Shown here piece after piece: positions 26,324 through 47,491 of a stretch of DNA of 64,000 nt; position 1 is the first letter of the stretch; each line of letters opens with the position of its first letter. The DNA comes from Streptosporangiaceae bacterium (lineage in GTDB: Bacteria > Actinomycetota > Actinomycetes > Streptosporangiales > Streptosporangiaceae). The DNA lies in assembly GCA_030039155.1 (NCBI GenBank), contig JASHQL010000156.1:162-64161 (forward strand), in the 5' to 3' direction. The notes under the pieces were generated by a model. It had not been told where the DNA came from and made no database searches. It saw only the letters and a program-made list of their open reading frames with translations. Both the position numbers and the translations under genes were made by a program.

Positions 26324-26356
26324 GCCGGTACCGGCCTTCCGTGCGCAGCCTGGGCG

Positions 26357-26385: not shown

Positions 26386-26424
26386 AGCACGTACGAGAAG
26401 CACTGTCAGCAGGAGGCCGCAGGC

Positions 26425-27429: not shown

Positions 27430-27432
27430 GCG

Positions 27433-29843: not shown

Positions 29844-29892
29844 CGATTTTCGCCTTTCCTGCCGCGGGAAGCTTGCTGCTCGGGAGCCCGGC

Positions 29893-31245
29893 TCATGCTG
29901 CCCGCTGCCAGCCGATGCCGTCAGCGGACGGGACCAGGCTGCCCGGCACGACGGCCACAGCGCCCTGGCTGGCCGCTGTGCGGGCAGCGTAGGAATGCTC
30001 GGAGTCACCTGGAACGAGTGCGGGATCGTCAGAAGCTGCACCACCGACGAGTTCTATGAACGCGACAATGTCCGCCAGAGCCGAGCCGGTGAGCCGCTTC
30101 GCCGCCCAGAAGTACGAATGCTCGCTGAGACTCTCGATATAGAACGCTCTGAGGAACTGATAGAAAAACCTGTATTCTGTTCGGTACCTGCGTTCGAACT
30201 CGGCCAGTGCCTGCTCTTCCGGGATCGCGCCGGCCAGGCTGCTGTTGATGGCCCGTGCGGCCAGCAGCGCCCCATAAGTGGCCAGGTGGACACCGGAGGA
30301 GAGAACCGGGTCAACGAAGCACGCGGTGTCGCCGACTAGGACCATGCCAGGCCGGTGAAAGCGATCGTGGCAATACGAGTAGTCGCGCCGGATGCGGACG
30401 TGCCCGTAGGGTCCGTCGGTGACGCGGCTTGCGGTCGACAGATATTGCCTGATCAGCGGGCAGGACGCGATGAGCCCGGCGAGGGCGCCAGCTGGATCTC
30501 CCTGGATGCTGGGCGCGAGGTCACCGGGGATCACCGCGCCGACGCTGGTCAGGGTCGCACTGAGCGGGATGTACCAGAACCAGCCGTTGTCGAATGCTAC
30601 CGACAGGATGTTGCCGGAGTGCGGCTCGGGCAGCCGCTTCCCGTTCTCGAAGTAGCCGAACACGGCGATGTTGCGGAAGAAGTCCGAATAGTGACGCTGA
30701 CCTGCCATCCGGCGATAGATCCGGCTGCGGTGCCCGCAGGCGTCGGCGACGAACCTGGCCAGGGCGGTACGCACCCGGCCGTCATCGTCGGTGTACCTGA
30801 TGCCTTGCACCCGACTCTGCCCGACGACGATGTCAATCGCTGAACATCCTTCATGCACGTCAACCCCGGCGCGCCGGGCGTTGTTGAGGAGGATGGCATC
30901 GAACCGCATCCGTTCGACCTGGTAGGCGTAGGAATTGCCGTGCGAGAAGGCGGGCAGGTCGCGAAATTCGAACGTCCATGGCTCAGGGTTGCTGCCCCAT
31001 CTGAATGTTCCGCCATGCTTCACGATGAAACGGCCGGCTTCAAGTTCGTCGCTAACACCGAGGAGGCGGCATATCCCATGGACAGTGGCCGGCAGCAAAG
31101 ACTCACCGATCTGATATCGCGGGAAGTGCTCCTTTTCCAGCAGCAGAACCCGCTGACCTCGCATGGCCACCAGTGCGGCCAGAGTCGCGCCGGCCGGCCC
31201 GCCGCCAGCCACGATCAGGTCATACCGCTCAGAGGCCAGCGTCAC
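29893..31245 (-). CDS. flavin-dependent halogenase
   Basis: RBS AGGGAG, then GTG at 31245. YDLIVAGGGPAG FAD motif, FPRYQIGESLLP, and the halogenase signature GWFWYIPL (WxWxIP). Confidence 0.8.
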   Translation of the reverse strand: MTLASERYDLIVAGGGPAGATLAALVAMRGQRVLLLEKEHFPRYQIGESLLPATVHGICRLLGVSDELEAGRFIVKHGGTFRWGSNPEPWTFEFRDLPAFSHGNSYAYQVERMRFDAILLNNARRAGVDVHEGCSAIDIVVGQSRVQGIRYTDDDGRVRTALARFVADACGHRSRIYRRMAGQRHYSDFFRNIAVFGYFENGKRLPEPHSGNILSVAFDNGWFWYIPLSATLTSVGAVIPGDLAPSIQGDPAGALAGLIASCPLIRQYLSTASRVTDGPYGHVRIRRDYSYCHDRFHRPGMVLVGDTACFVDPVLSSGVHLATYGALLAARAINSSLAGAIPEEQALAEFERRYRTEYRFFYQFLRAFYIESLSEHSYFWAAKRLTGSALADIVAFIELVGGAASDDPALVPGDSEHSYAARTAASQGAVAVVPGSLVPSADGIGWQRAA

Positions 31246-33772
31246 TGATGGCTCCCTCGATGTTGAGCGCACGGCAGCGCAGCGTACGCAGGATGTCGTC
31301 TTGGCCCTCGGTGAGCAGGCGGCGCAGGGCGGCGGGCGGATCGGTGGTGGCGATGTAGGCATCGGTCGCGTCCACTGTCTGCTGGCTGAATGGGCAGGCC
31401 GGATACAGGCCGGCGACGAAGTCTTGCGCCATTGCGGTTGGCCACGTGCGCCAGACCACATCGATCGCACTGAAATAGTCGTCCAGGTAGGGCTCGGTCA
31501 GCGCACGCTGGTCGGGGTAGGCAAACCCGGCCAGCAGCGCACGGAACAGCGCAAGCGGAAGCTCGCCGCTGGTTAGCTTCCGCCACGCGGCCCGCTTGGC
31601 ATCAGCTGCAGGTATCGCTGCGTGACACGTTGCGGCATGCCGTTCACCGGCATCGGTGGCATCGCGGCTCCGCTCGCGGTCGATCTGGCTGGCCCCGGCC
31701 TTACCCCTGCTGACCAACCTGGTCAGCAGCGTCCAGCGCAGGTCGGTGTCGACGAGCAGACCGCTCAGCGCAGCCGAGCCGTCCAGCAGGCCGGCTAGGA
31801 ACGCCAGGTCATCGTCGCGGGTGGCAACCTCGGCAAGCGCTCGCAGGTACGTGAGCTGAGTGTCTGATCCGGCGGGTGCCTGGCTGAGGAGCCCGCGCAG
31901 CGTCGTGGCAATCAGCTCGAGCCCGGTCTCCTGCCAGGCCGGGTCGGCGTAGCGCCTCACCGCCACGCCGGCCTGGCCGAGCAGAGCTTGCGCCATGCTC
32001 ACGTCGGGGACAGTGCCGACGCCTGAGGCGACGAGCTTGACATATTCGCGCGCTGCCATTTCTCCGTCTCGGCACATGTCCCAGGCGGCAGACCAGCACA
32101 ACGCGGCCGGGAGCGAGTCGGCGAAGCCGCCGATGTTGCCGAGAAGCGTGCGCAGCGACCGCTGGTCGAGCCTGATCTTGGCGTAGCTCAGGTCGTCGTC
32201 GTTCACCAGCAGCAGGTCTGGGCAGGATTCCCCGATCATCGCTGGCAACATCGTCAGTTCGCCGGCGACATCGACCTCGACTCGCCCGGTACGAGCCAGG
32301 GCACCGCATGACCGGTTGTACAGCCCGATGGCTATGCGGTGCGACCGCAGGACTGGGTGCTGTCGCGGAGCTTCCTGCAGGACGGCGAATGAGGTGAAGC
32401 GGCCGGCCTCATCGAGGGTGAACGATGGCCGCAAGGTATTGACCCCAGCAGTTTCCAGCCACTGCCGGGACCAGGAAGTTAGCTCACGGCCTGAGGCTGC
32501 CTCAAGTGCCGAGAGCAGGTCAGCCAGCGTCGCGTTTCCCCATGCGTGCGCGGCAAAGTACCTCCGCACGCCGACCAGGAAGTTCTCCCGACCCACCCAG
32601 GCGACAAGCTGTTTGAGCACAGCCGCGCCCTTGGCGTAGGTGATGCCGTCGAAATTGACCTCGACAGCTGCGATGTCCGGGATGTCGGCTGAGATCGGGT
32701 GCGTGGTGGCCAACTGGTCCTGGCGATACGCCCAGGCCTTGTAGAGCTGGGCGAACGTCGTCCATCCGGACGACCAGCGAGTAGCCTCCACCTCGGCAAG
32801 CGTGCCGGCCCAGGTCGCGAACGACTCATTCAGCCAGAGATCATCCCACCAGCGCATGGTGACCAGGTCGCCGAACCACATGTGCGCCATCTCATGCAGG
32901 ATGGTCTCCGCCCGGCCCTGGCGGACGAAGTCGGTGACCCTAGACCGGAAGAGGAACTGCTCGGTGAACGTCACGGCGCCAGGGTTTTCCATGGCGCCCT
33001 CTTTGAATTCCGGCACGAATAGCTGATCATACTTTCCGAACGGATACTTGGTCCCGAAGATATTGTGAAAGAAACCAAAGCCTTGCTTGGTGATCGTGAA
33101 AATCTCGTCCGGATCAAGATACTCGGCCAGCGACTGGCGGCAGAAAATGCCCAGCGGAATGCCGTCGCACTCGTCCTTTGCCAGGTGATAGGGACCCGCG
33201 GCGACCGCCGTGATGTAAGTTGGCATCGGCGGGGTAGCCGGGAACCTCCAGCAGATCCCGTCCTGAACTGGTTCGGTCAAGTCCGGCGCCATGTTAGAGA
33301 CCACGGTCCAGTCCGCTGGCGCGGTGACTGTGAAGGCGAAGCTGGCCTTCAGGTCGGGTTGATCGAAGCACGCATAGACCCGGTGCGCGTCGAACGCCTC
33401 AAGGTCGGAGTACAGGTACGCCCGACCGTCAGCCGGATCGATAAACCTGTGCAGTCCAGCGCCCGTGCGCGAATACTCGCATTCAGCGTCGACCGCGAGG
33501 ACATTCTCTGCGCACAGACCGGTCAGCGCTATGCGGTGGCCGTCGAATGCTGCCGGGTCCACCGGCTCGCCGTTCAGCGTGATGCGGTGAACGCCGGCGG
33601 CCGTCAAGTTCACGAAGGTCGTGGCATCAGGCGCGCGGCTGCTGAACCTGATCAGGCTTGACGATGCGAATGTGCCGGCCGCGCTGGTCAGGTCGAGGTC
33701 AACCTGGTACGAGTCGACCCGGACAAGCGCGGCACGCTGCCGCGCTTCCTGCAGGGTCAGGTCAGCTGACAT
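31229..33772 (-). CDS. pepN: M1-family aminopeptidase N
   Basis: GAMEN exopeptidase motif (EGAMENPG) and HEMAHMWFGDLVTMRWWDDLWLNESFA (HExxH-x18-E). 847 aa. Confidence 0.9.
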   Translation of the reverse strand: MSADLTLQEARQRAALVRVDSYQVDLDLTSAAGTFASSSLIRFSSRAPDATTFVNLTAAGVHRITLNGEPVDPAAFDGHRIALTGLCAENVLAVDAECEYSRTGAGLHRFIDPADGRAYLYSDLEAFDAHRVYACFDQPDLKASFAFTVTAPADWTVVSNMAPDLTEPVQDGICWRFPATPPMPTYITAVAAGPYHLAKDECDGIPLGIFCRQSLAEYLDPDEIFTITKQGFGFFHNIFGTKYPFGKYDQLFVPEFKEGAMENPGAVTFTEQFLFRSRVTDFVRQGRAETILHEMAHMWFGDLVTMRWWDDLWLNESFATWAGTLAEVEATRWSSGWTTFAQLYKAWAYRQDQLATTHPISADIPDIAAVEVNFDGITYAKGAAVLKQLVAWVGRENFLVGVRRYFAAHAWGNATLADLLSALEAASGRELTSWSRQWLETAGVNTLRPSFTLDEAGRFTSFAVLQEAPRQHPVLRSHRIAIGLYNRSCGALARTGRVEVDVAGELTMLPAMIGESCPDLLLVNDDDLSYAKIRLDQRSLRTLLGNIGGFADSLPAALCWSAAWDMCRDGEMAAREYVKLVASGVGTVPDVSMAQALLGQAGVAVRRYADPAWQETGLELIATTLRGLLSQAPAGSDTQLTYLRALAEVATRDDDLAFLAGLLDGSAALSGLLVDTDLRWTLLTRLVSRGKAGASQIDRERSRDATDAGERHAATCHAAIPAADAKRAAWRKLTSGELPLALFRALLAGFAYPDQRALTEPYLDDYFSAIDVVWRTWPTAMAQDFVAGLYPACPFSQQTVDATDAYIATTDPPAALRRLLTEGQDDILRTLRCRALNIEGAISDAGL

Positions 33773-33789: not shown

Positions 33790-34434
33790 CTAGCTGGCGA
33801 GCAGCATTCGCACCGATCCCAGCAGCCTGAGCCCAGCCTGACGGCGCTCGCCTTCGGCCGCGCCCAGCAGTCGTGCCACCTCAATGAGGTCGCAGAGTTC
33901 GCTGGTGGCCGAGGTAAGCAGCGACCGCGCGGCCCGGCTCCGCTGCACGATCCGCAACGCCGCGGCGGACTGCGTCGCGAACAGCGATAGCAACTCCAGT
34001 TGGGTCAGCTGAGACCGGCTGAGCTGCTGAGAGTCAAGAACCTCGAGGACGCCGATGGGTTCCTCATCGCAGATCACCGGGCTCGCCATCAGCGTGGCCG
34101 GCACGTAGTTCGTGGACTCCGCGATCTCTTTGGCGAACCGGTCATCGCCGTCCAGGTTGTCGACGATGACTGGCTGGCCTGACTCGAGCACCCACCCGGC
34201 GATGCCCCTGCTGGCCGGAAACCGCGTCCCGACGAGGAAGTCTGCTCCTTCGCCGGCCACGGCCTCGAACACCAGGTCGCCACTCGCGGTGTCGAGCAGG
34301 AAGATCGAACTGGCCGCTGCGTCGAAGATGGCACGCGCGGTGAGCACCACTGAATCCAGGAGCATGCGCTGATCTTCTTCAGAATCGAGCACAGCCAGCG
34401 ACATTGCCGCAGCCAGGGCGTTGTTATTGGTCAT
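33790..34434 (-). CDS. GAF-domain protein with short helical C-terminal extension
   Basis: ATG at 34434 overlaps the S8 stop (ATGA). The GAF-like core runs from SSIFLLDTASGDLVFEAVAG through RGIAGWVLESGQPVIV to PIGVLEVLD. No ANTAR or HTH seen. Confidence 0.75.
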   Translation of the reverse strand: MTNNNALAAAMSLAVLDSEEDQRMLLDSVVLTARAIFDAAASSIFLLDTASGDLVFEAVAGEGADFLVGTRFPASRGIAGWVLESGQPVIVDNLDGDDRFAKEIAESTNYVPATLMASPVICDEEPIGVLEVLDSQQLSRSQLTQLELLSLFATQSAAALRIVQRSRAARSLLTSATSELCDLIEVARLLGAAEGERRQAGLRLLGSVRMLLAS

Positions 34435-35267
34435 CGGGCACCTCGCACATTCGCGGCCGTGAGGTACAGCATGTTCTTGACCTGGAAGGCGGTCAGCTCG
34501 GGATTCTTGCTCAGAATCAATGCGCAATAGCCGGCGATGTGCGGGGTGGCAAAGCTGTTTCCGGTGCAGCGGCGCGTGCCGCCGCCAAGCCATGCCACTT
34601 CCACGTCGACTCCGTGCGCGAAGAACTCAACAGGCGGATGCGGGTTATAGAAGAACTGGCCACTATCTCCGGTGTCATGGCTGCCGACGGAAATGACCGA
34701 GGAGAAGCGCCAGGGATAACTCTCGACTCTGAGGTTGTGCGCCGAGGCGACAAGCGCGGTCTTGCGGAAGTAAGCGTCGTCGGCCAGCACGCGAAGGGCA
34801 TCGGCAAATTTCTGCCTCGTCGTGGAGAGGCTGAGGTTGACGACGTCGAACCGCTGCGCTACGGCCCACGCCAAGCCAGCCATGAGGGCGTCGCCGGTGC
34901 CAGAAAGGCCATGACTCAGTACTCGGACGCTATGAATCTCGCAGTCCGGCGCTACCGAGCGCACGACGCCGGCGCACGCCGTACCGTGACCGCTCAGGTC
35001 GTCTGCTCCGACCGGCACAACTGCCCACCCGCCGTCGGCCTGCCGCTCGACGGCATGCGACCCCTGAACCGGCCCGACTCGTGGATGGCCGCCTTCTACG
35101 CCGCTGTCGACGATGCAGACGCGGACGCCACTTCCGGTAGCGTCGCCCCACGCCTCATGCGCAGTCACCGGAGATGGCCATCTGGTGGCCTCGGCCAGGT
35201 TTGCGCGATCGCGGCCGACGATGTTCCAGGTGAGGGGCGGCCTGGCCAGCCGCGTGGTGTCCATCAC
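34431..35267 (-). CDS. S8-family (subtilisin-like) serine peptidase without signal peptide
   Basis: Catalytic triad motifs VDSGV, HGTACAG and GNSFATPH. GTG at 35267 or ATG at 35264. The start overlaps the upstream stop. Confidence 0.85.
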   Translation of the reverse strand: MMDTTRLARPPLTWNIVGRDRANLAEATRWPSPVTAHEAWGDATGSGVRVCIVDSGVEGGHPRVGPVQGSHAVERQADGGWAVVPVGADDLSGHGTACAGVVRSVAPDCEIHSVRVLSHGLSGTGDALMAGLAWAVAQRFDVVNLSLSTTRQKFADALRVLADDAYFRKTALVASAHNLRVESYPWRFSSVISVGSHDTGDSGQFFYNPHPPVEFFAHGVDVEVAWLGGGTRRCTGNSFATPHIAGYCALILSKNPELTAFQVKNMLYLTAANVRGAR

Positions 35268-38200
35268 TACCTTCCTTCAAGCAGTTGCCGTGCCCAGCCG
35301 ACGCCCACGACATGCCCTTTCCGGCTGAACCACGTCGCTGCCTGCCTGGCCATGTCCGCTGAGCCTGCACGGTCGCCGAGGTCGTGCAAGGCGATGGCCG
35401 TATCCAGGCACGCTGTCGCCCGAACTTCCGGCGAGTCGGTGCGTCGCGAGGCGGCCAGCGCTAGCGCGGACAACTGGCCTACCTCGTGGGTCAGTCCCTG
35501 CCGTGCCATGGTGCGGGCCTGCACGCCGCGACGGTCGGCGGCCGCGGCAGGCATGTCGTCGGATACCGGCGCGAAAGCTAGCTCGGCCGCCTCCGCCAGG
35601 TGCCCGCGTAGCAACTGGATCCGAGCAAGGTCCCGCGCGGCCGTCTCGGTCAGCTGCAGGTCCCCGAGATCTTTGGAGTCGATGTATGCGCGCCGCACGA
35701 TGGACTCTGCCGACTCGAGGTCGCCGGCCATCAGCCGGGTCGCGCCGACGAAGATCGGCAGAGCCACGTGCGCGCGGGCGTTGTCGAGGCCGCTGACTAT
35801 GTGGCCGGCCTCAACGAGGAACGCGTGGGCCTGATCATGCTCGGCAGCCATGGCTGCCAGCATTGCCAGCGGACAGAGCAAGGCAGCTCGTACCGTGCGG
35901 TGCGTGACCGCGTGCGCGCCGAGCAGGTCCCTGCAGCGTGCGATCGCCTGTGCGGCAGCCAGCGGCCCTGCCCAGAGCGAGACGCCAAGCGCGCCGAGGA
36001 CTGTGGCCTGCTCAAGAGCGGCGTCCAGCCGGATCGCCTGGTCTAGGGCAAGGCTGAGGGCCCTGACGGCGCTGGCGTGCCGGCCCTTGCTCTGTTTCGC
36101 GACGCCAATTCGCAGCCAGGCCCTGGCGACTCCCAGGTAGTCGCCTGCCTGTTCGAAGACTGGCAGGGCCTGGCGGGCGGCCTTGACCGACGCGCTGAAC
36201 TGCCTGGGCTGGCCAAGGTAGGCAAGCTGCATTTCGGCATGCGCCTTGATGGCTGGATTGTGCCCGGCAAGTGCTCGGTCACGGGCAGCGGCGAGGTCTC
36301 GCCGCCCGGCCTCGATCTCGCCTGCCATCAGCGCGGCTTCACCCGCCCGCAGAAGCAGCTCGGCGAGACGCTGGTCGTCAGCCGCGCAGAGCTGCAATGC
36401 CCGTCCGAGCAATCCCGATGCGTGCCGCGGATCGCCGCTGCCGAGTGCACGATTGCCGGCTGACCGCAGCGCGTCGATGGCCCGGTCAGCTAGCTGACTG
36501 CGCGTCGCCTCGGGCGTTCCGACTTCCCTGCCGAGCAGCCATGCGCGCTCCCAGTGCGTGCCAGCGATCTCGGCGTCCCCGCCGCTGGCGCTCAACCAGG
36601 CTGCCAGCCGCTCATGTCCGGCGGCGCGCCATCCCTTCGGCATCGAGTCATAAGCGACCTCATGGATCAGAGCGCTGTCGAACCGGTAGGTGGCTGCAGG
36701 CCAGGCAGCGATCTGCCGGATCAGCCGACGCTGCACGAGCGCTGCCAGGCCCTTGGCCAGTCTCGCTGCCAAGTCATCTTCGGCAATGGCAGCGAGTTCT
36801 GCGGCCGTGAAGTCGCGTCCGACCACGGCGGCCAGCCCGAGGATCCTGCGCTCACTGGTGGCGAGCAGGTCCAGCCGGTAGGAGATCAGGCCGTTGATGC
36901 TGACCGGCATCGCCTCAGACGTGCCGCTTCTGGCGACGTTGATGACCTGTTCAAGGTAGAGCGGATTGCCCTCTGCCCGGGCCACCGCGCGTTCTGCCAG
37001 CTCGGCGTCGTGAGCCATCACTTCGTCGAGCTTGGCGGCCAGAACGCGGCAGTCATCATCGCTTAGCGGGCGCAGCATGTCGGCGCGAGCATTCGGTCGG
37101 TGGCCGTTTCGTGCCCGTTCCTGTGTGGGCGTCTCGGGGCGAGCAAGCCACAGCACGGTCACAGCGACTCCAGACAGCCGGGCAGCCAAGCCGTTGACCG
37201 CATTCACAAGCTCCTGGCCCGCCATGTGCATGTCATCGAGAACGAGCACAAGCGGCCGGCCCCTGCCGATCTCGCCGAGCACGCGGCGAAGAGCCCACAC
37301 GGTCTCTGCCGGCGAGATTCCGGGCGAGTCATCGGCCAGTAGTCCCGCCCGCAGCATCGCCAGCGCTTCGGCTACCTCGGCGTCAGGGTGCGTTGGCTGG
37401 TCCCACTGAGCCAGCAGCTTCCTGACTGCCTCGGCCAGCGCCAGCAGTGAGCCGCCGGTGCCATAACCAGGGCAACTGCCGTCGGCGACTAGGGCGCTGG
37501 CGGAACGGGCCCACGCCGTGAACTCAGCGGCCAGCCGAGACTTGCCGATCCCCGCGTCGCCGTACAGGGTCACCAGCTGGCAGCTGCAGTCGCGTACCGC
37601 CAGGCTGTATGCGTGCCGCAGCGCAGCCATCTCGTCCAGGCGGTTCACCATGGGCAGATCGAAGCGGCGCGGGATGGCTGGTGCCCCATCGCTCACGCTG
37701 ACAAGACGGCCAGGCGTGATCTGGTGCGCGAAGCCCTTCAGCGTCAGCGGAGCTGCCGCCTCCTGGTCGGCGACGCCGTCAAGAGCCTTGCGGGTGAGCG
37801 GGCCGAGCAGGATCTCCCCGGCGTTGGCATGTTGCTCGAGCCGCGCCGCCAGGTTCACGGTCTCGCCGGAAACGAGCGTTGCGGCTGCTGCCAGGTCGTA
37901 GGCTGCCACGACCGGCCCGGTGTTCACGCCAATGCGCACATCGAGAGTGACGTGCAGGTCCTTGGCAGCCTCGGCATTGAGGCCAACCAGCGCCTGCCGC
38001 ATCTGCGCAGCCGCTCGAACCGCGCGCAGCGCGTCGTCCTCGTGCACGACGGGAACTCCGAACACCGCCATCACCGCATCCCCGATGTACTTCTCGACCA
38101 CCCCGCCATGCCGCTCGATACAGCTGCTCATGAGGTCGAAGTACCGGAGCATGAGTTCGCGCAGGGGCTCGGGATCAAGGGCGCGGCTCAGTTCCGTGGA

Positions 38201-38335
38201 GCCGACCAGATCGCAGAACAGCACAGTGACGGTCTTGCGAATTGTCAGGCCCTGCTCCCGCCGAGCTCGTTCGCCGCACGACGGGCAGAACTTAGCCTTG
38301 GCCGGCAGCTCTGTCAGGCAGGTCGCGCAGAGCAC
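35267..38335 (-). CDS. zinc-ribbon / class III adenylate-guanylate cyclase / AAA(STAND) ATPase / TPR-like multidomain protein
   Basis: GTG at 38335. CATCLTELPAKAKFCPSCG. Cyclase motifs FCDLVGST, YIGDAVMAVFG, GVNTGPVV and GETVNLAARLE. Walker A GDAGIGKSRL and Walker B LVLVLDDMH. Long Ala/Leu-rich helical repeat tail. No C-terminal HTH. Confidence 0.85.
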   Translation of the reverse strand: MLCATCLTELPAKAKFCPSCGERARREQGLTIRKTVTVLFCDLVGSTELSRALDPEPLRELMLRYFDLMSSCIERHGGVVEKYIGDAVMAVFGVPVVHEDDALRAVRAAAQMRQALVGLNAEAAKDLHVTLDVRIGVNTGPVVAAYDLAAAATLVSGETVNLAARLEQHANAGEILLGPLTRKALDGVADQEAAAPLTLKGFAHQITPGRLVSVSDGAPAIPRRFDLPMVNRLDEMAALRHAYSLAVRDCSCQLVTLYGDAGIGKSRLAAEFTAWARSASALVADGSCPGYGTGGSLLALAEAVRKLLAQWDQPTHPDAEVAEALAMLRAGLLADDSPGISPAETVWALRRVLGEIGRGRPLVLVLDDMHMAGQELVNAVNGLAARLSGVAVTVLWLARPETPTQERARNGHRPNARADMLRPLSDDDCRVLAAKLDEVMAHDAELAERAVARAEGNPLYLEQVINVARSGTSEAMPVSINGLISYRLDLLATSERRILGLAAVVGRDFTAAELAAIAEDDLAARLAKGLAALVQRRLIRQIAAWPAATYRFDSALIHEVAYDSMPKGWRAAGHERLAAWLSASGGDAEIAGTHWERAWLLGREVGTPEATRSQLADRAIDALRSAGNRALGSGDPRHASGLLGRALQLCAADDQRLAELLLRAGEAALMAGEIEAGRRDLAAARDRALAGHNPAIKAHAEMQLAYLGQPRQFSASVKAARQALPVFEQAGDYLGVARAWLRIGVAKQSKGRHASAVRALSLALDQAIRLDAALEQATVLGALGVSLWAGPLAAAQAIARCRDLLGAHAVTHRTVRAALLCPLAMLAAMAAEHDQAHAFLVEAGHIVSGLDNARAHVALPIFVGATRLMAGDLESAESIVRRAYIDSKDLGDLQLTETAARDLARIQLLRGHLAEAAELAFAPVSDDMPAAAADRRGVQARTMARQGLTHEVGQLSALALAASRRTDSPEVRATACLDTAIALHDLGDRAGSADMARQAATWFSRKGHVVGVGWARQLLEGR

Positions 38336-38363: not shown

Positions 38364-39209
38364 TTACAAGAAGAGGCCGCCGGCGACGTCGCCGGAATGC
38401 GCCACGACGTCTGCACGGCCGGCTTGAAACTGCTCGATGTCGGCCAGCACCGCAGCCTCGCCATCAGACAGGCCGGGAAAGCGCGCCCTGGCGTCAGCTA
38501 TGGCTTCCTTCCTGTGCACCGCTATCTCGTCGGCGGGACTCCCGGCTGCGGGTTCGACGCTTGCCAGCTCAGCAAACAGCGCAATCGCCTTGCTCGCCGT
38601 GTGCAAAGCGCTGAACCCGACCAGTGCGCGCAGCCGCGGTTCAAGGGTCAACCGATCGAGCAAGGCGAAGACCGCTTGCCCGTGTGCTGCATCAGATGCC
38701 GAGTGCCCCGATAGGGCAGCCGTCACATCCTGGCGGCCGGTGGCGGCGCGGATGTGCTCGAGTAGCTGGTCTGCCGGGGGGTTGCCCTCAAGCACGGCGA
38801 GGCAGCCGAGCAGCGCGACCGGATGAACGTCGGCGATCAGCTGATACTGTGCGCCCAGCAGGTCGGTGATCGCCGGCGTCGGCAGCGCGCCGGTCGCCCG
38901 CGATGGGTCCTGGCCTAGCGCGGTCAGGTCGGCGATCACCCACCGGTCGTGACCCCGTTCCTCGCGGACGTGCTGGGTGAAGAAGCCGACAAGCGGCCCA
39001 TTGAGCTTGTCGCCTGGATGTTGCAGACATTGGCGACGAGCGAATCTCAGCAGCGGGACGGCAGCTCGCGCGACCGGATACATGGCGGTGAGGTAGCGAG
39101 CATACGCTGGAGCCAGATCTGGGCTGCGCCAGAACAGATCTGCGGCAATATCAATTGCCGGACGAGCTAGATCGATCTTAGCTCGCAGAATCTCGCCTTC
39201 TCCGGTCAC
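38364..39209 (-). CDS. heme-oxygenase-like iron-containing redox enzyme family protein (TenA/PqqC/HDO fold)
   Basis: GTG at 39209. The HVREERGHDRW motif (E-x2-H type metal ligands) and all-helical composition are typical of the Haem_oxygenase_2 / iron-containing redox enzyme family. Confidence 0.65.
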   Translation of the reverse strand: MTGEGEILRAKIDLARPAIDIAADLFWRSPDLAPAYARYLTAMYPVARAAVPLLRFARRQCLQHPGDKLNGPLVGFFTQHVREERGHDRWVIADLTALGQDPSRATGALPTPAITDLLGAQYQLIADVHPVALLGCLAVLEGNPPADQLLEHIRAATGRQDVTAALSGHSASDAAHGQAVFALLDRLTLEPRLRALVGFSALHTASKAIALFAELASVEPAAGSPADEIAVHRKEAIADARARFPGLSDGEAAVLADIEQFQAGRADVVAHSGDVAGGLFL

Positions 39210-39406: not shown

Positions 39407-40042
39407 CTACTCGTCGGGCGCAGTCCTCATTATGATCTCCAGCCGACTATGCAGGCCTAACTTATCGAGGATGCTTTCGATATGGGACTTGACTGTTGAC
39501 CGCGCGATGGAAAGCGCATCAGCGATCTGCGGGTTCGTCATCCCGAGCCGCACCAGCTCAAAGACCTCCCGCTCCCGTCTGGTGAGCTTCCTGCCTGCGT
39601 TGTCCCGGTCGCTGTCAATCTCATCGAGGACGGCGGCGTGGGCGAGTACCTCGTCGACGCCATCGCGCGGAAGCGGCATGTAGCCCGCCATCATCAGTGA
39701 GGCCATGGCGGCCAGGTGACTGGACACCACCTTGCTTCTGATGATGACGCACAGTCCGCTGCGGATGAGTTTCGACGCCCAGTCGCTGGTGCTGGCAACC
39801 AGCACCAGCACTGGCACCGCCACGGCCTTGTCGGCGAGACTGAGCCGAAACAGCGAACCCGCAGTCTCCGCGGTAATCGTCTCCAGGCAGATGACATACA
39901 GGTCCGGTCTTGGCAAATCTGACAGTGGATCGATATTGCGGTCGGCAGCAACGACCTGGACCGCAACGTCGCTGACGCTGGCAAGGGCGTTCTGAACGCC
40001 GCTGAGAACGAACTCATCGTCCCCAGCGACGACTATGCGCAT
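39407..40042 (-). CDS. LuxR-family regulator with atypical receiver-like N-terminal domain
   Basis: RBS GGAGGAGG upstream of ATG at 40042. C-terminal HTH LTRREREVFELVRLGMTNPQIADALSIARSTVKSHIESILDKLG. N-terminus MRIVVAGDDEF is receiver-like. Confidence 0.85.
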   Translation of the reverse strand: MRIVVAGDDEFVLSGVQNALASVSDVAVQVVAADRNIDPLSDLPRPDLYVICLETITAETAGSLFRLSLADKAVAVPVLVLVASTSDWASKLIRSGLCVIIRSKVVSSHLAAMASLMMAGYMPLPRDGVDEVLAHAAVLDEIDSDRDNAGRKLTRREREVFELVRLGMTNPQIADALSIARSTVKSHIESILDKLGLHSRLEIIMRTAPDE

Positions 40043-40201: not shown

Positions 40202-41464
40202 TTAGGTAACAGCTTCCGGCTGCCCGCGCTGCTTCTTCTGCTCCGATCTCAACGTGCTGAGCTTGCGGGAGGCCAGCACGGCTGAGGCCATGGCTACTGC
40301 GACCGCGGCCACCCCGGCGATGACGAACGTTGGCCGCGGACCGAATGCCTGTCCTATCGTGCCGCCAAGCACCAGGGCCACGACCATGCCGACCTGAACA
40401 AGGCCATTGAGCGACGCGATTGCCTTGCCCCGGTCCGCCTCGGGAGTGCGGCCGATCAGCACCGCACCGAAAGTGGCGTTGAGCGCGGTATTCGCCAGGC
40501 CGATGAGGAGGCCGAAGCAGAGGTAGACCGCGAAGTCCGGGGACAGGCCTGCGCCGATGCAGCCGAGCCCGACGAGCGCGAATCCAGCGAAGGTGATGGT
40601 CACTTGCCACGTGACCGCCTTGGCCCTGGCCGCGACCACCGAGCCAGCCACTCCGCCGACCGCCGCGGCGATCTCCGATAGTCCGTACAGGGACGCAGAG
40701 GTATGCAGGGACACGCGGACGAGGAAGACATCGACGACGTTCACGCCGCCGATCACCACGATCGTCGCGGTGAGTGCCCACATCATCGGCCAGACTATTG
40801 CGTCCTGCCTGATCGCGGAGAAGCCAGCAAACACCCTGGTGAAGGCTCTGGCGGCAGACGGCCGAGTGATGCCTTCCCGGTGTCCGGAGCGACGGGTTTG
40901 CACCAGCATCGCAGCGCAGGTCAGCAGCGCAAACGTAGCGGTGTCGACGAGCACGGCGGTGCGCATGCCAGTCAGTCCGAACAGCAGCCCGCCCAGGCCG
41001 GCACCGGCTGGGGCACCGACCGCGGCAAGACCGGACTGCAAGGCCACGAAGCTGCCGATCTTGTCTTCGCCCACGACTCTGGGCATCAGCGCCGTCCAGG
41101 TGGGCACAGTGAACGCCTGGCCAACCTGGATGGCGAAGACGAGCAGGAATACCGCGACCAGGTCGGAGGTGAAGGCAAGCGCGCAGCAGGCTAGCGTCTG
41201 CGCCGCCGTCGCGATGGCGAGCACGGTCCTGGAGTCGTAGGTGTCCGCAACATGGCCTGCGATACCTATCAGCAGCACCAGTGGCAGTGACTCCACGCCC
41301 AGCATCACTGCCACTGGCCAGATACCGATATGGGCACGCTCGAGGTACAGCAGCAACACGATGGCCAGCACGCTGTCCCCGAGCAGCGAGACGGCACGCG
41401 CCGGTACCACGATCCGGACATCGCGGATGCGCCAGAGCTGTCGTGGCGGGGCCTGCTCGGTCAC
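40202..41464 (-). CDS. MFS transporter
   Basis: GTG at 41464, 9 nt after RBS GGAAGGAG. About 12 hydrophobic helices, for example LLGDSVLAIVLLLYL and GVAAVAVAMASAVLA. Confidence 0.8.
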   Translation of the reverse strand: MTEQAPPRQLWRIRDVRIVVPARAVSLLGDSVLAIVLLLYLERAHIGIWPVAVMLGVESLPLVLLIGIAGHVADTYDSRTVLAIATAAQTLACCALAFTSDLVAVFLLVFAIQVGQAFTVPTWTALMPRVVGEDKIGSFVALQSGLAAVGAPAGAGLGGLLFGLTGMRTAVLVDTATFALLTCAAMLVQTRRSGHREGITRPSAARAFTRVFAGFSAIRQDAIVWPMMWALTATIVVIGGVNVVDVFLVRVSLHTSASLYGLSEIAAAVGGVAGSVVAARAKAVTWQVTITFAGFALVGLGCIGAGLSPDFAVYLCFGLLIGLANTALNATFGAVLIGRTPEADRGKAIASLNGLVQVGMVVALVLGGTIGQAFGPRPTFVIAGVAAVAVAMASAVLASRKLSTLRSEQKKQRGQPEAVT

Positions 41465-41516: not shown

Positions 41517-43475
41517 TCAGGGCACCGGCAGGTAGTCCGGCCGCCGTGCCAGCAGTGACCGGGCATCCGCCAGGTCAGCCGGTGAACCGGGCAGTACGCT
41601 CGAGATCGCGCGATGACGGATGGTGGCTAGCTCTAGGCAGTAGTCCTCCAGCAAGCCTGGGGGCAGCGACTTGGGGACCACGGGCGTGTAGTTGACGATC
41701 AGCGAGAGGATCCGGTCATCCACCTCGAGCAGCCAACCGATGTCCAGCAGCCCGGCTAGGGCTTTGACGCCAGCATCCCCTGCCCCGTCAAGCAGGTCGG
41801 CACGGCGCACACCGCGGTCGGACCGCTGGACGAGGTCAAGCTCGAGCGGCTCGAGGCAGCGCCGTGCCACCAGCGCGCCTGGCCTGGTATCAAACACCTG
41901 GCATCCGTCTGGCGTCTCGGCGCGCAGCAGTGCGCTGCCCGGATACTCGTCGCGCCACTCCTGCACGATCGAGTTCAGCACTACCCCATACTCTTCAGGG
42001 TTGTTGCCGTCGTCCGGTTCGAACTCAAAGTAGTAGGCCAGGTCGTCCAGTGCTGAGTCCGGCAGGCCGTAGACGAGCCGGTAAGCCCTGGACGGCCTGC
42101 GGTTGGCGACCCCCAGGGCCTTCCCGTCAAAGTGCAGCGGGCTGAACCGGTCCAGGCGCACCCGCCCGCCGGCTTCCGGCGGCTGCAGGTGGAAGAGTCG
42201 AGGCAGCATGCCGAACATTTGCAGGTAATCCTGCTTGCGCTCACGCGGGAACCCGTACAGCAGGTTCCAGGTCGCGGCAATGCCCAGCTCCTCTCCCCAT
42301 TTGAGCAGCCGGATGTTGTGGTACGCCTGCACACCCTTGCGCATGAGCATGAGCACCGGCGTGCTCATGCTCTCAATCCCCGGCTGAACGCTGCGGATGC
42401 CCGCCCGGCGCATGAGCACCAGCTGATCCCTGGTGACCTTGGACTTGATCTCATAGAACAGGTGCGCAGAGTGCTCGCGTTTGGCCAGTTCCGGTAGCAC
42501 CGTGCGGAAGTAACGGAAATCAAGGATGTTGTCCACCGCGTGTACGTTCTGGATACCGTACGAAAGCGCGGCGTGGATCTCCCGCAGCACATTGTCCGGG
42601 CTCTTGCTGCGGAACTGGAGGTTCTCTCCGTTCAGCCCGCAGAAGGTGCAATGCTGCTGCGCCCCGTACCAGCAGCCCCGGCTGGTCTCGATCGGGATCA
42701 GCAGCTCTGACTCCGCTATGCCGAGGTCGGCGCGGGCGAGCTGGCCAAGCCAGTCTTCAAACCGCGGCTGCGGCAACGCGTCCAGGTTCTGTGGCGGAAC
42801 AGGCCTGGCAACGCTCGGATGCGCGCGGGACAGCATCCCGGGGATGGCCGTGGCGTCGTCGGCGTGCCGTGCGATGGCGTTCGCCAGATTGAGCAGCGCC
42901 TGCTCGCCTTCGCCTGGGCAGACGTAGTCCACCCAGGGAAAGAGTCGCATCACGGCCGCGCCCATGCCCGCTTCGCAGGAGGCGCCGCCGAGCACAACCG
43001 GCACGCTCGGGTTGGCCGCCTTGAAATAGCGGGCCATCGACAGACTAGGCGCCAAGTTGAAGGTGGTGCTGAAGCATACGAGGTCGAAGCGGCGGTCGAT
43101 GATCTTCCGGCTCTCGGTACTGACGAGGTCGCGTGCCTCCGCCACCAGCGCAGGCAGGAGCTGCCCGATCCACGGGGGAACCCGCTTCCAGGCCGAATAG
43201 CGCGCTAGCTCCTCAGGGCTAGGCTCCCGGTCCTGCCCATCAGGATCCAGCCAGACCGGGGCGAACACGAGGTCGCTGAGGAGAATGTCGGCAGGCAGCC
43301 GCTCAGAGATCGTGGTGTAGAGGTTGACGCCGATGCGGCGGGCGAACTTCATGTTCAGGTAGCTGATTTCGACTATGTGGCCGTGCTGCTCGAGCACCGC
43401 TCGCAGCAGGCTCGGGCCGAGCGCGGGCCTGCGGACAGCCTGGAACGGCATCTGCGGGAACAAGATCCTGGTCAT
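41517..43475 (-). CDS. B12-binding-domain radical SAM enzyme, RiPP-maturation type, paralog 2
   Basis: MTRILFPQMPFQ, VVLGGASCE and GCWYGAQQHCTFCGLNG. Collinear similarity to 27834..29843 along the whole length. Confidence 0.85.
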   Translation of the reverse strand: MTRILFPQMPFQAVRRPALGPSLLRAVLEQHGHIVEISYLNMKFARRIGVNLYTTISERLPADILLSDLVFAPVWLDPDGQDREPSPEELARYSAWKRVPPWIGQLLPALVAEARDLVSTESRKIIDRRFDLVCFSTTFNLAPSLSMARYFKAANPSVPVVLGGASCEAGMGAAVMRLFPWVDYVCPGEGEQALLNLANAIARHADDATAIPGMLSRAHPSVARPVPPQNLDALPQPRFEDWLGQLARADLGIAESELLIPIETSRGCWYGAQQHCTFCGLNGENLQFRSKSPDNVLREIHAALSYGIQNVHAVDNILDFRYFRTVLPELAKREHSAHLFYEIKSKVTRDQLVLMRRAGIRSVQPGIESMSTPVLMLMRKGVQAYHNIRLLKWGEELGIAATWNLLYGFPRERKQDYLQMFGMLPRLFHLQPPEAGGRVRLDRFSPLHFDGKALGVANRRPSRAYRLVYGLPDSALDDLAYYFEFEPDDGNNPEEYGVVLNSIVQEWRDEYPGSALLRAETPDGCQVFDTRPGALVARRCLEPLELDLVQRSDRGVRRADLLDGAGDAGVKALAGLLDIGWLLEVDDRILSLIVNYTPVVPKSLPPGLLEDYCLELATIRHRAISSVLPGSPADLADARSLLARRPDYLPVP

Positions 43476-43495: not shown

Positions 43496-45268
43496 TCAGA
43501 CCGCGTCCGCGAGCTGTGGCACGCGGATGCGTCGCACTGTCTTCTTCTTCGTGTCGGCTGAGTAGAGCCAGTGACCGCGGCGGGCGGCCTCGAGATCGGC
43601 AAGCGGCCTGGTATCGAGGCCGGTGCAGTCAAGCCAGCTGAGCAACGGCGTCTGCGGATCGAGCAGCACGCTGACACCAAGCCAGTGCTCGAATTCCAGG
43701 ACCTGCAGCAGGACCTCGGTTCGTTCCTGGCCAAGGCCGAGGTGGCCGAGGAACTGCCGGAGCTCCGCATACACGCGCGATGCGCCAGTGGCCGGGTCGA
43801 ATGCCTGGGTAGCCGCAGACGGCGTGCCGCGCTCCTCGTGCCGCACCCAGCGCACGAACTCGGTGCCGAGCTCCGGGCCGAGCAGATCCCAGAGCAATCG
43901 CAGAGTGTTTCCGAACGGTCCCAGGTGCAGGATGAACCAGTAGATGTATCGGTAATGCGCGCGCGAGGTGTACTCGTTGGGAAAGTAGTAGAAGCTGCTG
44001 AAGATTCTTGGGTACCGGCGGATCTGCTCTTCCTCCCATGGCGTGACGGTCCACATGACCGCTACATCATTCAGGCGGCCGTCGAACTGCAACTGGTCTT
44101 CGTACTCGGCGGTCAGCTCGGTGCCGGCTAGCGGCGACAGTGAGTGAACTTGAACGTTGCGCATGGCCGGGCGCCACGAGCGAAATTCGAAGTAGAGATT
44201 CAGCGTGTCGGCAAGGTCGTCCGGGGTCTCGGCTGGGAAGCCGATGATCAGCGAGGCAGTTACGCCGATCTGGCGCTCCCACGCGGACCGCACCGCGATC
44301 TTGATGTCCGCTACCTTCAGGCCCTTCTTGATGGCCTGCTGCATGTTTTCCGAGCCCGACTCGACGCCGAAGAAGATCCGGCGGCATCCGGCTTCGTACA
44401 TCAGGTCAAGCAGGCTGTCGTCGATCCGGTCGGTGCGGGCACTGCACGCCCAGTCAAGGTGGAGATCTTCGCTGATCAGCCGTTTGCAGAGGTCCGCTAC
44501 CAGCCTGCGGTTCGTCGTGAACATGTCGTGCACGAACTCGAAATGGCTGCTGGCATGCTGCTCTCGCACCTTCTGCAGCTCGGCGATGATCATGTCGGCG
44601 CTGCGGAAGCGGAACCGGCGCTGGAAGAAAACCTTCGTCGAGCAGAACGTGCACTTATACGGGCAGCCGCGGCCGATCTCGACCGAGACTCCGCGGGCCC
44701 CCCCGTCAATTGGCGGTGGTGTGAGCGTGTAGTCGATGGGCCGGATGTCGTCGGCATCGATCAGCTGCGCTGGCTGGAGCTGCAGCGGGAGCAGCGTCAG
44801 GCGCGAAGCGCCTGGCGGGATGTAGATAAGGCCGGGGCGCACTGAGCGCTGACCGGTCGTGATCGCTTCCCAGAGGAACGTCACGACACTTTCCGCCTCG
44901 CCGATGACGATTCCGTCGATGAATTCATAGGCGGCCATGAGTTCACCGGGCACGCTGCTGGCCTGGGGCCCGCCGAGCACGACAGGCAAGCGGGGATGAA
45001 GTTCCTTGATCCGTTTCGCCAACGTCAGTGTCCGGGGCAGCGTGCCGCAGATCGTGCCAAGGCCAACCAGCCCAACATCCGGGCCGATGTGCAGGCCCGC
45101 AAGGAACTCTTCGAGATCGGTGTTGTCGGATGGCAGATAGTGAATGTCGACAGTCAGTCCGTGGTCTTCTTTGAGAATCGTGCCGACGACCATGACGCCC
45201 AGCGGCATCTCAGCCTGAAACTCGTCAGCTGTGCTGTTGACGAGTATCGCTCTGCTGCTGGGCGTCAC
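43496..45268 (-). CDS. class-B (B12-binding) radical SAM enzyme, distinct subfamily
   Basis: GTG at 45268, 4 nt after the upstream stop. B12-domain pattern PVVLGGPQAS. Canonical cluster GRGCPYKCTFCS. Confidence 0.85.
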   Translation of the reverse strand: MTPSSRAILVNSTADEFQAEMPLGVMVVGTILKEDHGLTVDIHYLPSDNTDLEEFLAGLHIGPDVGLVGLGTICGTLPRTLTLAKRIKELHPRLPVVLGGPQASSVPGELMAAYEFIDGIVIGEAESVVTFLWEAITTGQRSVRPGLIYIPPGASRLTLLPLQLQPAQLIDADDIRPIDYTLTPPPIDGGARGVSVEIGRGCPYKCTFCSTKVFFQRRFRFRSADMIIAELQKVREQHASSHFEFVHDMFTTNRRLVADLCKRLISEDLHLDWACSARTDRIDDSLLDLMYEAGCRRIFFGVESGSENMQQAIKKGLKVADIKIAVRSAWERQIGVTASLIIGFPAETPDDLADTLNLYFEFRSWRPAMRNVQVHSLSPLAGTELTAEYEDQLQFDGRLNDVAVMWTVTPWEEEQIRRYPRIFSSFYYFPNEYTSRAHYRYIYWFILHLGPFGNTLRLLWDLLGPELGTEFVRWVRHEERGTPSAATQAFDPATGASRVYAELRQFLGHLGLGQERTEVLLQVLEFEHWLGVSVLLDPQTPLLSWLDCTGLDTRPLADLEAARRGHWLYSADTKKKTVRRIRVPQLADAV

Positions 45269-45272
45269 CTCG

Positions 45273-46241
45273 TCAGACCTCGCCGTAGTACAGGGCCCGT
45301 AGCGTGTCGACCTGATCTCGGATTCTCTCGGCCGCGGCGTTCACCTTCGACTTGTTCTCCTCCTGCAGGAGCAGATGGCATGAACCGCACGGAGACCTCG
45401 CCAGAACCTCGTCATCAGGGTCGTCCCTGATGACGCCCGATTGGACGGCAAGCTGCCGCGCGCCGATGGTCCTGATCGTCTGCAACACACGACTATTACT
45501 GCGGGCATCCACCGCGTCCTTCAGCGGCGTGTTCTTCACATGCCCGAACCTGAGGTCATGGGGCCCGCGGACATACATGCTCTCGCCGCAGCAGCCGAAG
45601 ATCCCCCCGGTGCTGCGGATCATGAGCGTGGAGGCAGCAAGGCAAGGTTCGCGCTCCGGGAACATGGGGAAGACGCCGGGCTTCAGCTTGGTCGCGCGGC
45701 CAACCCGCATGACGCCGGAGAAGTGCACCCGCATGCGCTCGTCGTCGGTACCGAGGCCAAGTTCCTTGAGGATCTCCTCGAATTCCTCGCCTTCGGTATA
45801 GGTATATCGGATTACCGCGTCGATGCCGAGTTCCCTGGCCTCCTGCAGTGCGCGGCCTATGGCTCGCCTTGGAACGGCGGTTGCGTGATAGACATCGGCG
45901 CTGATGCCGAGTTTGCGCACGTCCAGGATCGAGTGCAGCACCTGCTGGCGTTCGGTGGAATCAACGGACCACGTGCCGTTGGTCGTCACCGAGTAGGCTA
46001 GGCCGAGGTCGCGGACGAGGCCGATCGCGTAGTAGAGCAGGTCTCGGACGTAGAAGACCTCGCCGCCGGTGAACCCTACTTCCGCCAGCGGATCGATCTC
46101 CTTGACCTGTTCAAGGACCGCCTTCAAGTATCCGCGGTCCAGCTTCGTCGTCACCTTTGGTGATGAGTTTGTCGAGCAATGCTGACACGCGAGATCACAA
46201 GACTCGGTCAGCTGGACCCCGACGCGGAGATTCTCGAACAT
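45273..46241 (-). CDS. radical SAM enzyme with C-terminal auxiliary-cluster-like Cys motifs (twitch/SPASM-like)
   Basis: ATG at 46241. CDLACQHC (CxxxCxxC) and GFTGGE. C-terminal Cys motifs EREPC, GIFGCCGE and SPCGSCH. Confidence 0.8.
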   Translation of the reverse strand: MFENLRVGVQLTESCDLACQHCSTNSSPKVTTKLDRGYLKAVLEQVKEIDPLAEVGFTGGEVFYVRDLLYYAIGLVRDLGLAYSVTTNGTWSVDSTERQQVLHSILDVRKLGISADVYHATAVPRRAIGRALQEARELGIDAVIRYTYTEGEEFEEILKELGLGTDDERMRVHFSGVMRVGRATKLKPGVFPMFPEREPCLAASTLMIRSTGGIFGCCGESMYVRGPHDLRFGHVKNTPLKDAVDARSNSRVLQTIRTIGARQLAVQSGVIRDDPDDEVLARSPCGSCHLLLQEENKSKVNAAAERIRDQVDTLRALYYGEV

Positions 46242-46322: not shown

Positions 46323-46553
46323 TTAGCTGACGTATACCGCCCCCACGCGGATCGCGGACTGGTCCATCATGTGCGCGGTGACGAGGTCCGATTCCTCGAC
46401 TTCGCTGATGTTGAGATCTCGCAGCATTGCCTTCTCGTGGTCGGTCAGTTCGAGTTCGCCCAGCGCCGCCGTCGAGTCAGCGCGGAACGCGTCGCGGAAG
46501 CTCTCGTCGGTCAGCAGCTGATTGATGACCTGCTTCACTACCTGGGATGACAC
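46323..46553 (-). CDS. candidate RiPP precursor peptide (76 aa) with LigA/NHLP-clan-like helical leader
   Basis: RBS GAGGAG 7 nt upstream of GTG at 46553. VSSQVVKQVINQLLTDESFRDAFRADSTAALGELELTDHEKAMLRDLNISEVEESDLVTAHMMDQSAIRVGAVYVS. It is the first gene of the collinear cluster, 81 nt upstream of a radical SAM gene. Confidence 0.65.
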   Translation of the reverse strand: MSSQVVKQVINQLLTDESFRDAFRADSTAALGELELTDHEKAMLRDLNISEVEESDLVTAHMMDQSAIRVGAVYVS

Positions 46554-46618
46554 AGCGGCACTCCTCGCTAGACTGGGCCGCTTGGACGAGTGAGCAGAAT
46601 TGCGGCCGCCTTCGCCGC

Positions 46619-47456: not shown

Positions 47457-47491
47457 CGAAATCGTCCCGTTCTGGCGTCCAGCATACCGAG

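Follow-up and report, generated by a model that had tools for sequence, protein, structure and literature searches.

The 64,000-nt window analysed here (contig JASHQL010000156.1 of assembly GCA_030039155.1, a Streptosporangiaceae bacterium, positions 162 to 64,161) carries a co-directional array of minus-strand genes, the first of which encodes a 76-residue protein that is probably the precursor of a ribosomally synthesized peptide that is post-translationally modified (RiPP). The reverse strand around its start reads ...tagcGAGGAGtgccgctGTG..., with a GAGGAG motif at 46566-46561 preceding a GTG codon at 46553 by 7 nt, and the start, frame and leading position in the cluster that were given in a preliminary description of this DNA agree with both the sequence and the gene order. 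The protein contains no Cys, no Trp, a single Tyr, two His and two Gly. The two Gly are not adjacent and there is therefore no Gly-Gly motif, and the residue count thus bears out the earlier statement that Cys, Trp and Gly-Gly are all lacking. We conclude that this open reading frame (ORF) is a real protein-coding gene under purifying selection, because its GC content at third codon positions is 0.83 (0.66/0.34/0.83 by codon position, the same as in the adjoining genes; window GC 68.9%), because pairwise ratios of nonsynonymous to synonymous substitution rates (dN/dS) are 0.12-0.37 (four orthologues, 63-75% identity), and because the identical 76-aa protein has been called independently on 13 public contigs of metagenome-assembled genomes (MAGs), where the gene order is that of the window. 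Three orthologues, with 75, 71 and 63% identity, are of equal length and have the same start residue, encoded by ATG in two of them, and the orthologue at locus L009 has an in-frame stop two codons 5' of its start. Scanning for promoters and terminators around the gene gave nothing useful on the coding strand, and an Rfam scan of the window returned no matches and therefore no cobalamin riboswitch. No additional copies of the precursor were found within the window. Elsewhere, a second precursor copy begins at the very end of the L008 contig (L008:14352-14545; …VSSQEVKHVLNQLLTDEDFRSQFQ), and the protein P0009 resembles a frameshifted version of such a second copy.

Table. Coordinates of the precursor gene, its parts and the other genes of the minus-strand array (positions in the window)
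Feature	Position	Strand	Basis and remarks
Shine-Dalgarno-like GAGGAG	46561..46566	(-)	Read from sequence; 7-nt spacer, then GTG at 46553
Precursor peptide gene	46323..46553	(-)	76 aa + stop (stop 46325-46323); translation VSSQVVKQVINQLLTDESFRDAFRADSTAALGELELTDHEKAMLRDLNISEVEESDLVTAHMMDQSAIRVGAVYVS, ends VGAVYVS
Leader domain, residues 1 to ~54	46392..46553	(-)	Helical, Os1348/LigA/NHLP clan; leader/core boundary approximate
Tail and putative core, residues 55-76 (SDLVTAHMMDQSAIRVGAVYVS)	46326..46391	(-)	Near-invariant in four orthologues
EpeE/YydG-like radical SAM enzyme, 322 aa, twitch-type auxiliary-cluster domain; putative peptide epimerase	45273..46241	(-)	TIGR04078, PDB, Foldseek
B12-binding radical SAM enzyme, 570 aa, ApyD-like; putative C-methyltransferase	43496..45208	(-)	Pfam B12-binding + Radical_SAM; start from gene calls
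B12-binding radical SAM enzyme, 652 aa, TIGR03975 RiPP maturation C-methyltransferase	41517..43475	(-)	531.5 bits vs cutoff 281.85, full length
MFS transporter, 420 aa; putative exporter	40202..41464	(-)	Pfam MFS_1, MFS_3
LuxR/GerE-type regulator	39407..40042	(-)	Pfam GerE 63 bits; also in L007, L008
Heme-oxygenase-like iron protein (PF14518)	38364..39209	(-)	PF14518 39.9 bits; PDB 3dde heme-oxygenase-like fold E 3.9e-6
Adenylate-cyclase/AAA/TPR regulator	35267..38335	(-)	Pfam; homologous architecture beside NEAU-GS5 cluster
Subtilisin-like S8 protease; candidate leader peptidase, cluster membership uncertain	34431..35267	(-)	Pfam Peptidase_S8; also adjoins L007 cluster
M1 aminopeptidase N; may trim leader or be housekeeping	31229..33772	(-)	TIGR02412 1016 bits; also adjoins L007 cluster
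Flavin-dependent halogenase, likely start near 31245; putative cluster link	29893..31470 (ORF limits)	(-)	Pfam Trp_halogenase 203 bits
Third B12-radical SAM enzyme, TIGR03975 type	27834..30044 (ORF limits)	(-)	549.2 bits vs cutoff 281.85; model match from ORF residue 71

Relatives of the precursor gene occupy the same position elsewhere. In 12 of 12 distinct loci, whose contexts were obtained by exact-protein look-ups, the precursor lies directly upstream of a radical S-adenosylmethionine (SAM) enzyme of ~322-345 aa, so that the ORF is conserved in syntenic loci, the lack of which had been named beforehand as evidence against it. The order peptide, radical SAM enzyme and at least one B12-binding radical SAM enzyme is seen in the window and in L007, L008, L013, L023/24, L025, L026/27, L028, L029 and L030; the 12 loci also include L009 and L012, in which the contigs end after the first enzyme and show the peptide and that enzyme only. 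Peptide identities across the loci range from 75% to ~25%, and those sources that are named comprise Actinomycetota and a Rhodobacteraceae MAG. A longer order of peptide, radical SAM enzyme, TIGR03975 enzyme, major facilitator superfamily (MFS) transporter, LuxR regulator and heme-oxygenase-like protein is repeated in Streptosporangiaceae NEAU-GS5 and in an Actinomycetota MAG, and distant members keep a minimal module consisting of the peptide, a radical SAM enzyme of ~324-345 aa and one or two B12-radical SAM enzymes of either type. L030 was reached from a homologue of the radical SAM enzyme (58% identity), upstream of which is a 76-aa family member ending AAIRVGSVYID; the pair is followed by both types of B12-radical SAM enzyme, an M16 peptidase and an MFS transporter. 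In L028 and L030, a Rhodobacteraceae MAG and another metagenome contig, the cassette of three or four genes is set amid relaxase, resolvase, large serine recombinase and transposase genes, and these flanks suggest its horizontal transfer.

The N-terminal part of the peptide had been taken for a helical leader of the LigA/NHLP clan, and at the level of the clan this is right. NF038399 (Os1348 family NHLP clan) matches residues 5-53 with 40.6 bits against a cutoff of 40 (E 2e-10), its scores for relatives of the precursor (38.8-53.7 bits) straddle that cutoff, and NCBI gives the name 'Os1348 family NHLP clan protein' to the orthologue P0003; a leader-family match, on which the prediction had been made to depend, is therefore present. 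TIGR04509 (NHLP-related RiPP peptide) gives a significant, if sub-threshold, match to residues 2-39 (30.1 bits against a cutoff of 34, E 3.8e-7), Pfam LigA (PF07746) is below threshold at 22.8 bits against a gathering score of 25.3 (E 9.9e-5), and Frankia_peptide (PF14407) scores 20 against a gathering score of 48, with precomputed PF14407 matches on some of the relatives. Two further models that had been put forward for checking, TIGR03793 (NHLP) and TIGR03798 (Nif11), are absent among the NCBIfam matches of the precursor at E <= 0.1. The leader string quoted in the preliminary description is real, and its span is residues 5-47 rather than the 5-45 given there. In the AF2 model, helices are placed at residues 3-15, 17-25, 27-32, 38-46 and 54-62 (pLDDT 71-80). 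A word-indexed homologue search with the peptide yielded just 4, then 12 matches, and the family became visible only when 1.84 billion representative proteins were searched exhaustively with a profile, which gave 101 matches at E <= 1e-3.

Another sub-threshold match of the precursor, in keeping with the clan, is to nitrile hydratase alpha. There are further ones to protocatechuate 4,5-dioxygenase alpha and gallate dioxygenase, and together with LigA these two could point to a fragment of a LigA-type dioxygenase subunit, or to a chance ORF, with no relation to the radical SAM genes. Every LigA match falls below its cutoff, however, there is no LigB-type partner gene nearby, and purifying selection and the strict synteny with a radical SAM gene over 12 loci contradict this explanation, which we consider to be excluded in practice.

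A profile of 22 family members (A5) matches the PDB chain 6lk7_A, an 85-aa 'nitrile hydratase alpha chain', with E 8.5e-6 over query residues 3-67, and also the LigA-domain borosin precursor SonA, a match that is weak but consistent (E ~0.005). Judging from its length, its name and its four chains, 6lk7 is presumed to be the crystal structure of Os1348 (PMC7726476), a protein found in its crystals as a stable, helical dimer whose C-terminus is flexible (PMC7726476). The extent of this match, the stability of that dimer, the occurrence of minimal cassettes without a peptidase, and conservation that includes the 'linker' residues 47-62 could all be accommodated if the product were not cleaved at all, and the 76-aa protein were a small folded and possibly dimeric molecule whose tail is modified in situ, a possibility likewise left open for Os1348. 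Set against this are the M16, S8 and M1 peptidases that recur beside the cassette, the recurrent MFS exporters, which would suit small peptides rather than folded proteins, and the role of homologous LigA-domain precursors such as SonA as leaders, and we regard an uncleaved product as quite improbable, less likely than the conversion of the tail into one fixed structure that is considered below.

The C-terminal tail is unstructured in the AF2 model (pLDDT < 50). Its most conserved part comprises residues 64-76 (46326-46364), with D64-S76 reading DQSAIRVGAVYVS, and the motif found throughout the family is D-x-x-A-I-R-V-G-A/S-x-Y-x-x. Among 22 full-length members (~25-75% identity) the conserved positions are D64, A67, I68, R/K69, V/I70, G/H71, S/A72, V/L/I73, Y74 (sometimes T or V) and I/L/V75. 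The motif is present in 27 of 103 profile-matched sequences, and the other 76 share the leader alone. A conserved leader and a variable core had been anticipated, but the core proves to be at least as conserved as the leader, as judged both by dN/dS in four close orthologues (0.04-0.11 for the tail, 0.11-0.56 for the leader) and by mean column entropy in the 22 members (1.72 versus 1.95 bits). No simple rule tying core residues to the type of B12-radical SAM enzyme was found. Arginase/agmatinase-family genes lie beside the cluster in L007 (L007:599-1540, (-); 138 bits against an agmatinase cutoff of 302) and L030 (L030:20409-20972), with none in the window, and together with the conserved Arg/Lys69 these raise the possibility of a peptide arginase that makes ornithine, as in landornamide.

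The small radical SAM enzyme encoded directly after the precursor resembles the epipeptide epimerase EpeE (YydG) in sequence, in predicted fold and in its cysteines. YydG/EpeE provides its sole PDB sequence matches (E 2.5e-22), with the CC motif aligned. The AF2 model of the enzyme is confident (pLDDT 88.5), and its nine top Foldseek matches are all EpeE (8ai1-8ai6), over the full length, with E ~3e-17 and TM 0.76; the next-best enzyme is anSME (E 3e-8, TM 0.56). The CX3CX2C motif is present, and C15, C19, C22, C217, C218, C285 and C288 are invariant (in 19 sequences, and over enzymes down to ~20% identity) and C200 is nearly so. The C217-C218 pair aligns with C222-C223 of EpeE, of which Cys223 is the hydrogen-atom donor that completes epimerisation (PMC13012085). 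In EpeE the auxiliary cluster resides in a twitch-type domain, and proteusin epimerases are without such a domain (PMC13012085). On the strength of its sequence match, its invariant C-terminal Cys residues and the fold of its model, the putative epimerase is of the EpeE/YydG type and not of the proteusin PoyD type, being set apart from PoyD and OspD by their description. This enzyme family is rare, with ~20 clusters among 5.8 billion proteins, and the annotation of its members goes no further than 'radical SAM protein' or generic names of the activase type, which constitutes an annotation gap. Scanning a species-level genome collection with the small enzyme recovered only the NEAU-GS5 locus and one unrelated enzyme, and a scan of the JGI metagenome collection recovered only generic radical SAM fragments. 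A second EpeE-like paralogue, 61-66% identical, is encoded in L007 (L007:8748-9725, (-)) and L009 (L009:181-1149); it has HCC after the cluster motif, like EpeE, where the first copy has HCS or HCA. In L009 a JmjC/cupin hydroxylase gene stands between the paralogue and the precursor.

Two B12-radical SAM enzymes follow. The larger belongs to TIGR03975, the NCBI family 'RiPP maturation radical SAM C-methyltransferase'. NF050148 (ApyD) matches the 570-aa enzyme in its catalytic half alone, with 251.7 bits where the cutoff is 750. ApyD makes (2S,3R)-beta-methyl-Tyr, by methylation at C-beta of a Tyr near the C-terminus (PMC11117315). The third enzyme of this kind is encoded where the array ends, ~16 kb away from the precursor and ~12 kb further along than the two adjacent to the peptide gene. 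The preliminary description had guessed at epimerisation or C-methylation of the peptide, chemistry that fits the EpeE-like and B12-radical SAM enzymes encoded next to it.

The most plausible explanation of the locus, and one that we consider probable, is that the adjacent radical SAM enzymes turn the tail of the precursor into a C-methylated peptide containing D-amino acids. The N-terminal ~50 residues, a helical domain of the Os1348/LigA/NHLP clan, would dock the modifying enzymes as SonA docks on SonM, presenting as substrate the unstructured C-terminal tail, and above all D64-S76. The EpeE/YydG-like enzyme would abstract the C-alpha hydrogen from aliphatic Val, Ile or Ala residues, and Cys218, the counterpart of EpeE Cys223, would return a hydrogen from the opposite face to give D-residues. 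The B12-radical SAM enzymes (one ApyD-like and one TIGR03975 enzyme adjoining, a second TIGR03975 enzyme further along) are predicted to methylate unactivated carbons, for which C-beta of Tyr74 (as with ApyD) and the side chains of Val and Ile have precedents. A peptidase (S8 or M1 here, M16 in other loci) would then cut off the leader and the MFS transporter would export the product. The general class, a radical SAM RiPP with an NHLP-clan leader, is already established, and no description of this rare gene set was found in the searchable literature; the gene family appears to be a hybrid that combines epipeptide enzymology and proteusin logic on a third type of leader.

Several observations weigh against this interpretation. 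The best family of the small radical SAM enzyme, TIGR04078 (YydG), scores only 82.1 bits against an equivalog cutoff of 300 (86-107 bits in its relatives), and the enzyme is therefore a relative rather than an orthologue of YydG. Asp210 of EpeE, the proposed proton relay, aligns to Thr205 here and to Ile or Thr in relatives, although a 2-residue insertion precedes it and the register may be off; the radical outcome may be a different one. The strong conservation of the core is atypical of antimicrobial RiPPs, and in some members Tyr74 is replaced by Thr or Val and Gly71 by His, so that only the aliphatic positions can be a universal target. The minimal three-gene cassettes L025 and L023 show no protease or transporter nearby, and the M1 peptidase, from its TIGR02412 score, looks like housekeeping PepN. 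For the precursor itself, AF2 confidence is moderate overall (pLDDT 65.7), and Foldseek of the model, which we used solely as support for the sequence-profile result, gave no significant match, the best being SonA with E ~1.

The remainder of the array offers candidates for export, processing and regulation. An MFS transporter is encoded beside the cassette in five loci (the window, L007, L008, L029 and L030). The heme-oxygenase-like protein, with EERGH and SDAAH motifs, is of the same fold class as PqqC-type enzymes; its gene comes after the LuxR gene in three actinobacterial loci (the window, L007 and L008), with 63% identity to the L008 copy, and literature searches found no description of a heme-oxygenase-like enzyme acting on a RiPP. 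Beyond the cyclase-type regulator the array continues with the S8 protease, a GAF protein, aminopeptidase N, the halogenase and the third B12-radical SAM enzyme. The enzyme genes of L013 and L030 are followed by genes for M16 peptidases, and near the cassette in the window and L007 there are S8 and M1 peptidases; leader removal is probably the work of a peptidase of one of these types (S8, M1 or M16) and not of a Gly-Gly-specific transporter. The halogenase, which has GGGPAG and GWFWYIP motifs, scores highest with the models CmlS (252 bits) and QhpG (144 bits), and its orthologue beside the NEAU-GS5 cluster (L007) is 74% identical. As the precursor lacks Trp, the substrate of the halogenase may be Tyr74, a His or another molecule. 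The S8 protease scores 102 bits as QhpE-like, below the cutoff of 165, and it and the halogenase flavoenzyme have secondary matches to QhpE and QhpG, respectively. QhpE and QhpG are the leader protease and flavin monooxygenase in the maturation of quinohemoprotein amine dehydrogenase, another radical SAM peptide-modification system. Directly upstream of the precursor and on the same strand is a gene for an OLD-like TOPRIM domain protein (46794-47543, (-)), which lacks conservation in the other loci and is therefore probably unrelated to the cluster. At the opposite end, an ORF of 461 aa (26365-27750, (-)) was rejected as a gene, having no family match and an Arg/Leu/Val/His-rich, shadow-like composition; it is probably the shadow of a plus-strand ORF (26341-27429), and the minus-strand array ends at this point.

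These partners bear on an alternative in which the precursor is the same but a small fixed structure is made on RVG(A/S)xYx by the EpeE-like enzyme together with its partners, for example through cross-linking, desaturation or excision of a residue pair, and the product is a conserved signal or cofactor-like molecule, comparable with mycofactocin or PQQ, and not an antimicrobial with D-amino acids. A core as conserved as the leader or more so, by both of the measures given above, the lack of conservation of EpeE Asp210 in the alignment, the retention of the heme-oxygenase-like iron protein in three actinobacterial loci, the adjoining LuxR and cyclase-type regulators, and the presence of a halogenase despite a precursor that offers no Trp substrate can all be read in this way. 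Yet the hydrogen-donor Cys pair is invariant, as epimerisation requires, there are no redox partner genes like those that accompany cofactor systems, MFS exporters are frequent, and several cassettes are in mobile-element contexts that are more typical of accessory metabolites; the cores of epipeptides are, moreover, likewise conserved (PMC13012085). On balance we think a fixed structure of this kind unlikely. The broader form of the proposal, which we also hold to be doubtful, is that of a new RiPP class with no arms-race antibiotic, in which the near-invariant A-I-R-V-G-A/S-x-Y-x-x would be made into one fixed molecule by an EpeE-fold enzyme recruited to new radical chemistry and by B12-radical SAM enzymes (in actinobacteria also by the heme-oxygenase-like enzyme and the halogenase), yielding a peptide-derived signal or cofactor that has spread horizontally between phyla.

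If the tail is indeed epimerised and C-methylated, as we favour, an EpeE-type fold with its catalytic Cys kept would be tied here to another leader family and to B12 C-methyltransferases, extending its reach beyond the epipeptides of Bacillota, and the family would represent a second, independent route to proteusin-like D-residues and C-methylation. The three-gene cassette would be a compact system for cooperation between an epimerase and B12-radical SAM methylases on a 13-residue core, and its members may be tool enzymes for installing D- and beta-methyl residues. The cluster is an experimentally tractable lead for genome mining, in which the conserved core is the surprising feature. That the core should be so unusually conserved, with a halogenase and a heme-oxygenase-like protein among its partners, suggests that the product has a fixed target.

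Epipeptides (EpeX/YydF, EpeE/YydG, EpeP and EpeAB, of Bacillota) are alike in their enzyme and their core. The small radical SAM enzyme has the EpeE fold over its full length (TM 0.76), with the same cluster motif and the Cys-Cys pair that includes the hydrogen donor, and both systems have a short, hydrophobic, Val/Ile-rich core of conserved sequence. The precursors, in contrast, are unrelated; that described here has a leader of the Os1348/LigA/NHLP clan, to which only NHLP-clan models match. One to three B12-radical SAM enzymes are always present here, and in place of the EpeP protease and the EpeAB ABC transporter, neither of which is encoded, there is an MFS transporter, with S8 and M1 peptidases nearby. 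The score of the small enzyme does not reach the TIGR04078 cutoff and Asp210 is not conserved in the alignment. Epipeptides, with their EpeE-type epimerases, are stated to be restricted to Bacillota (PMC13012085), whereas the named sources of the present family are Actinomycetota and a Rhodobacteraceae MAG.

Proteusins (polytheonamides, landornamide and aeronamide, with PoyD/OspD and PoyB/C) share the overall logic proposed here, with an NHLP-clan helical leader, radical epimerisation and the C-methylation of aliphatic residues by B12-radical SAM enzymes, and the C-methyltransferases of the TIGR03975 type found here score above their cutoff. They differ in their epimerases, which lack the twitch-domain auxiliary cluster of the EpeE type (PMC13012085), a comparison that for PoyD is made by description. 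The leader here is ~50 aa with no match to TIGR03793, the core is short and conserved where that of proteusins is long and variable, and there is neither a Gly-Gly site nor a transporter with a peptidase domain.

A close counterpart of the precursor is Os1348 (Pseudomonas sp. Os17, cluster OS3), since the leader passes NF038399 and the family profile matches 6lk7, and there, too, a small protein is encoded first in a putative modification operon, with efflux genes after it (PMC7726476). Its neighbours in Os17 are GNAT and other non-radical SAM proteins, unlike the radical SAM, B12-radical SAM and MFS proteins found here, and the C-terminal motif and the two kinds of radical SAM partner are specific to the present family. 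In the split borosins, SonA is likewise a helical precursor with a LigA domain, and it shows how such a domain docks on the enzyme, although that enzyme, SonM, is an alpha-N-methyltransferase, for which there is no gene here. In the aminopyruvatide pathway of Burkholderia (ApyA/ApyD), ApyD is the nearest characterised relative of the 570-aa B12-radical SAM enzyme and its target is a Tyr near the C-terminus, just as the conserved Tyr here is two residues from the C-terminus. The match to ApyD (252 bits against a cutoff of 750) covers the catalytic half only, however, there are no MNIO or P450 partners here, and some members of the family are without the Tyr.

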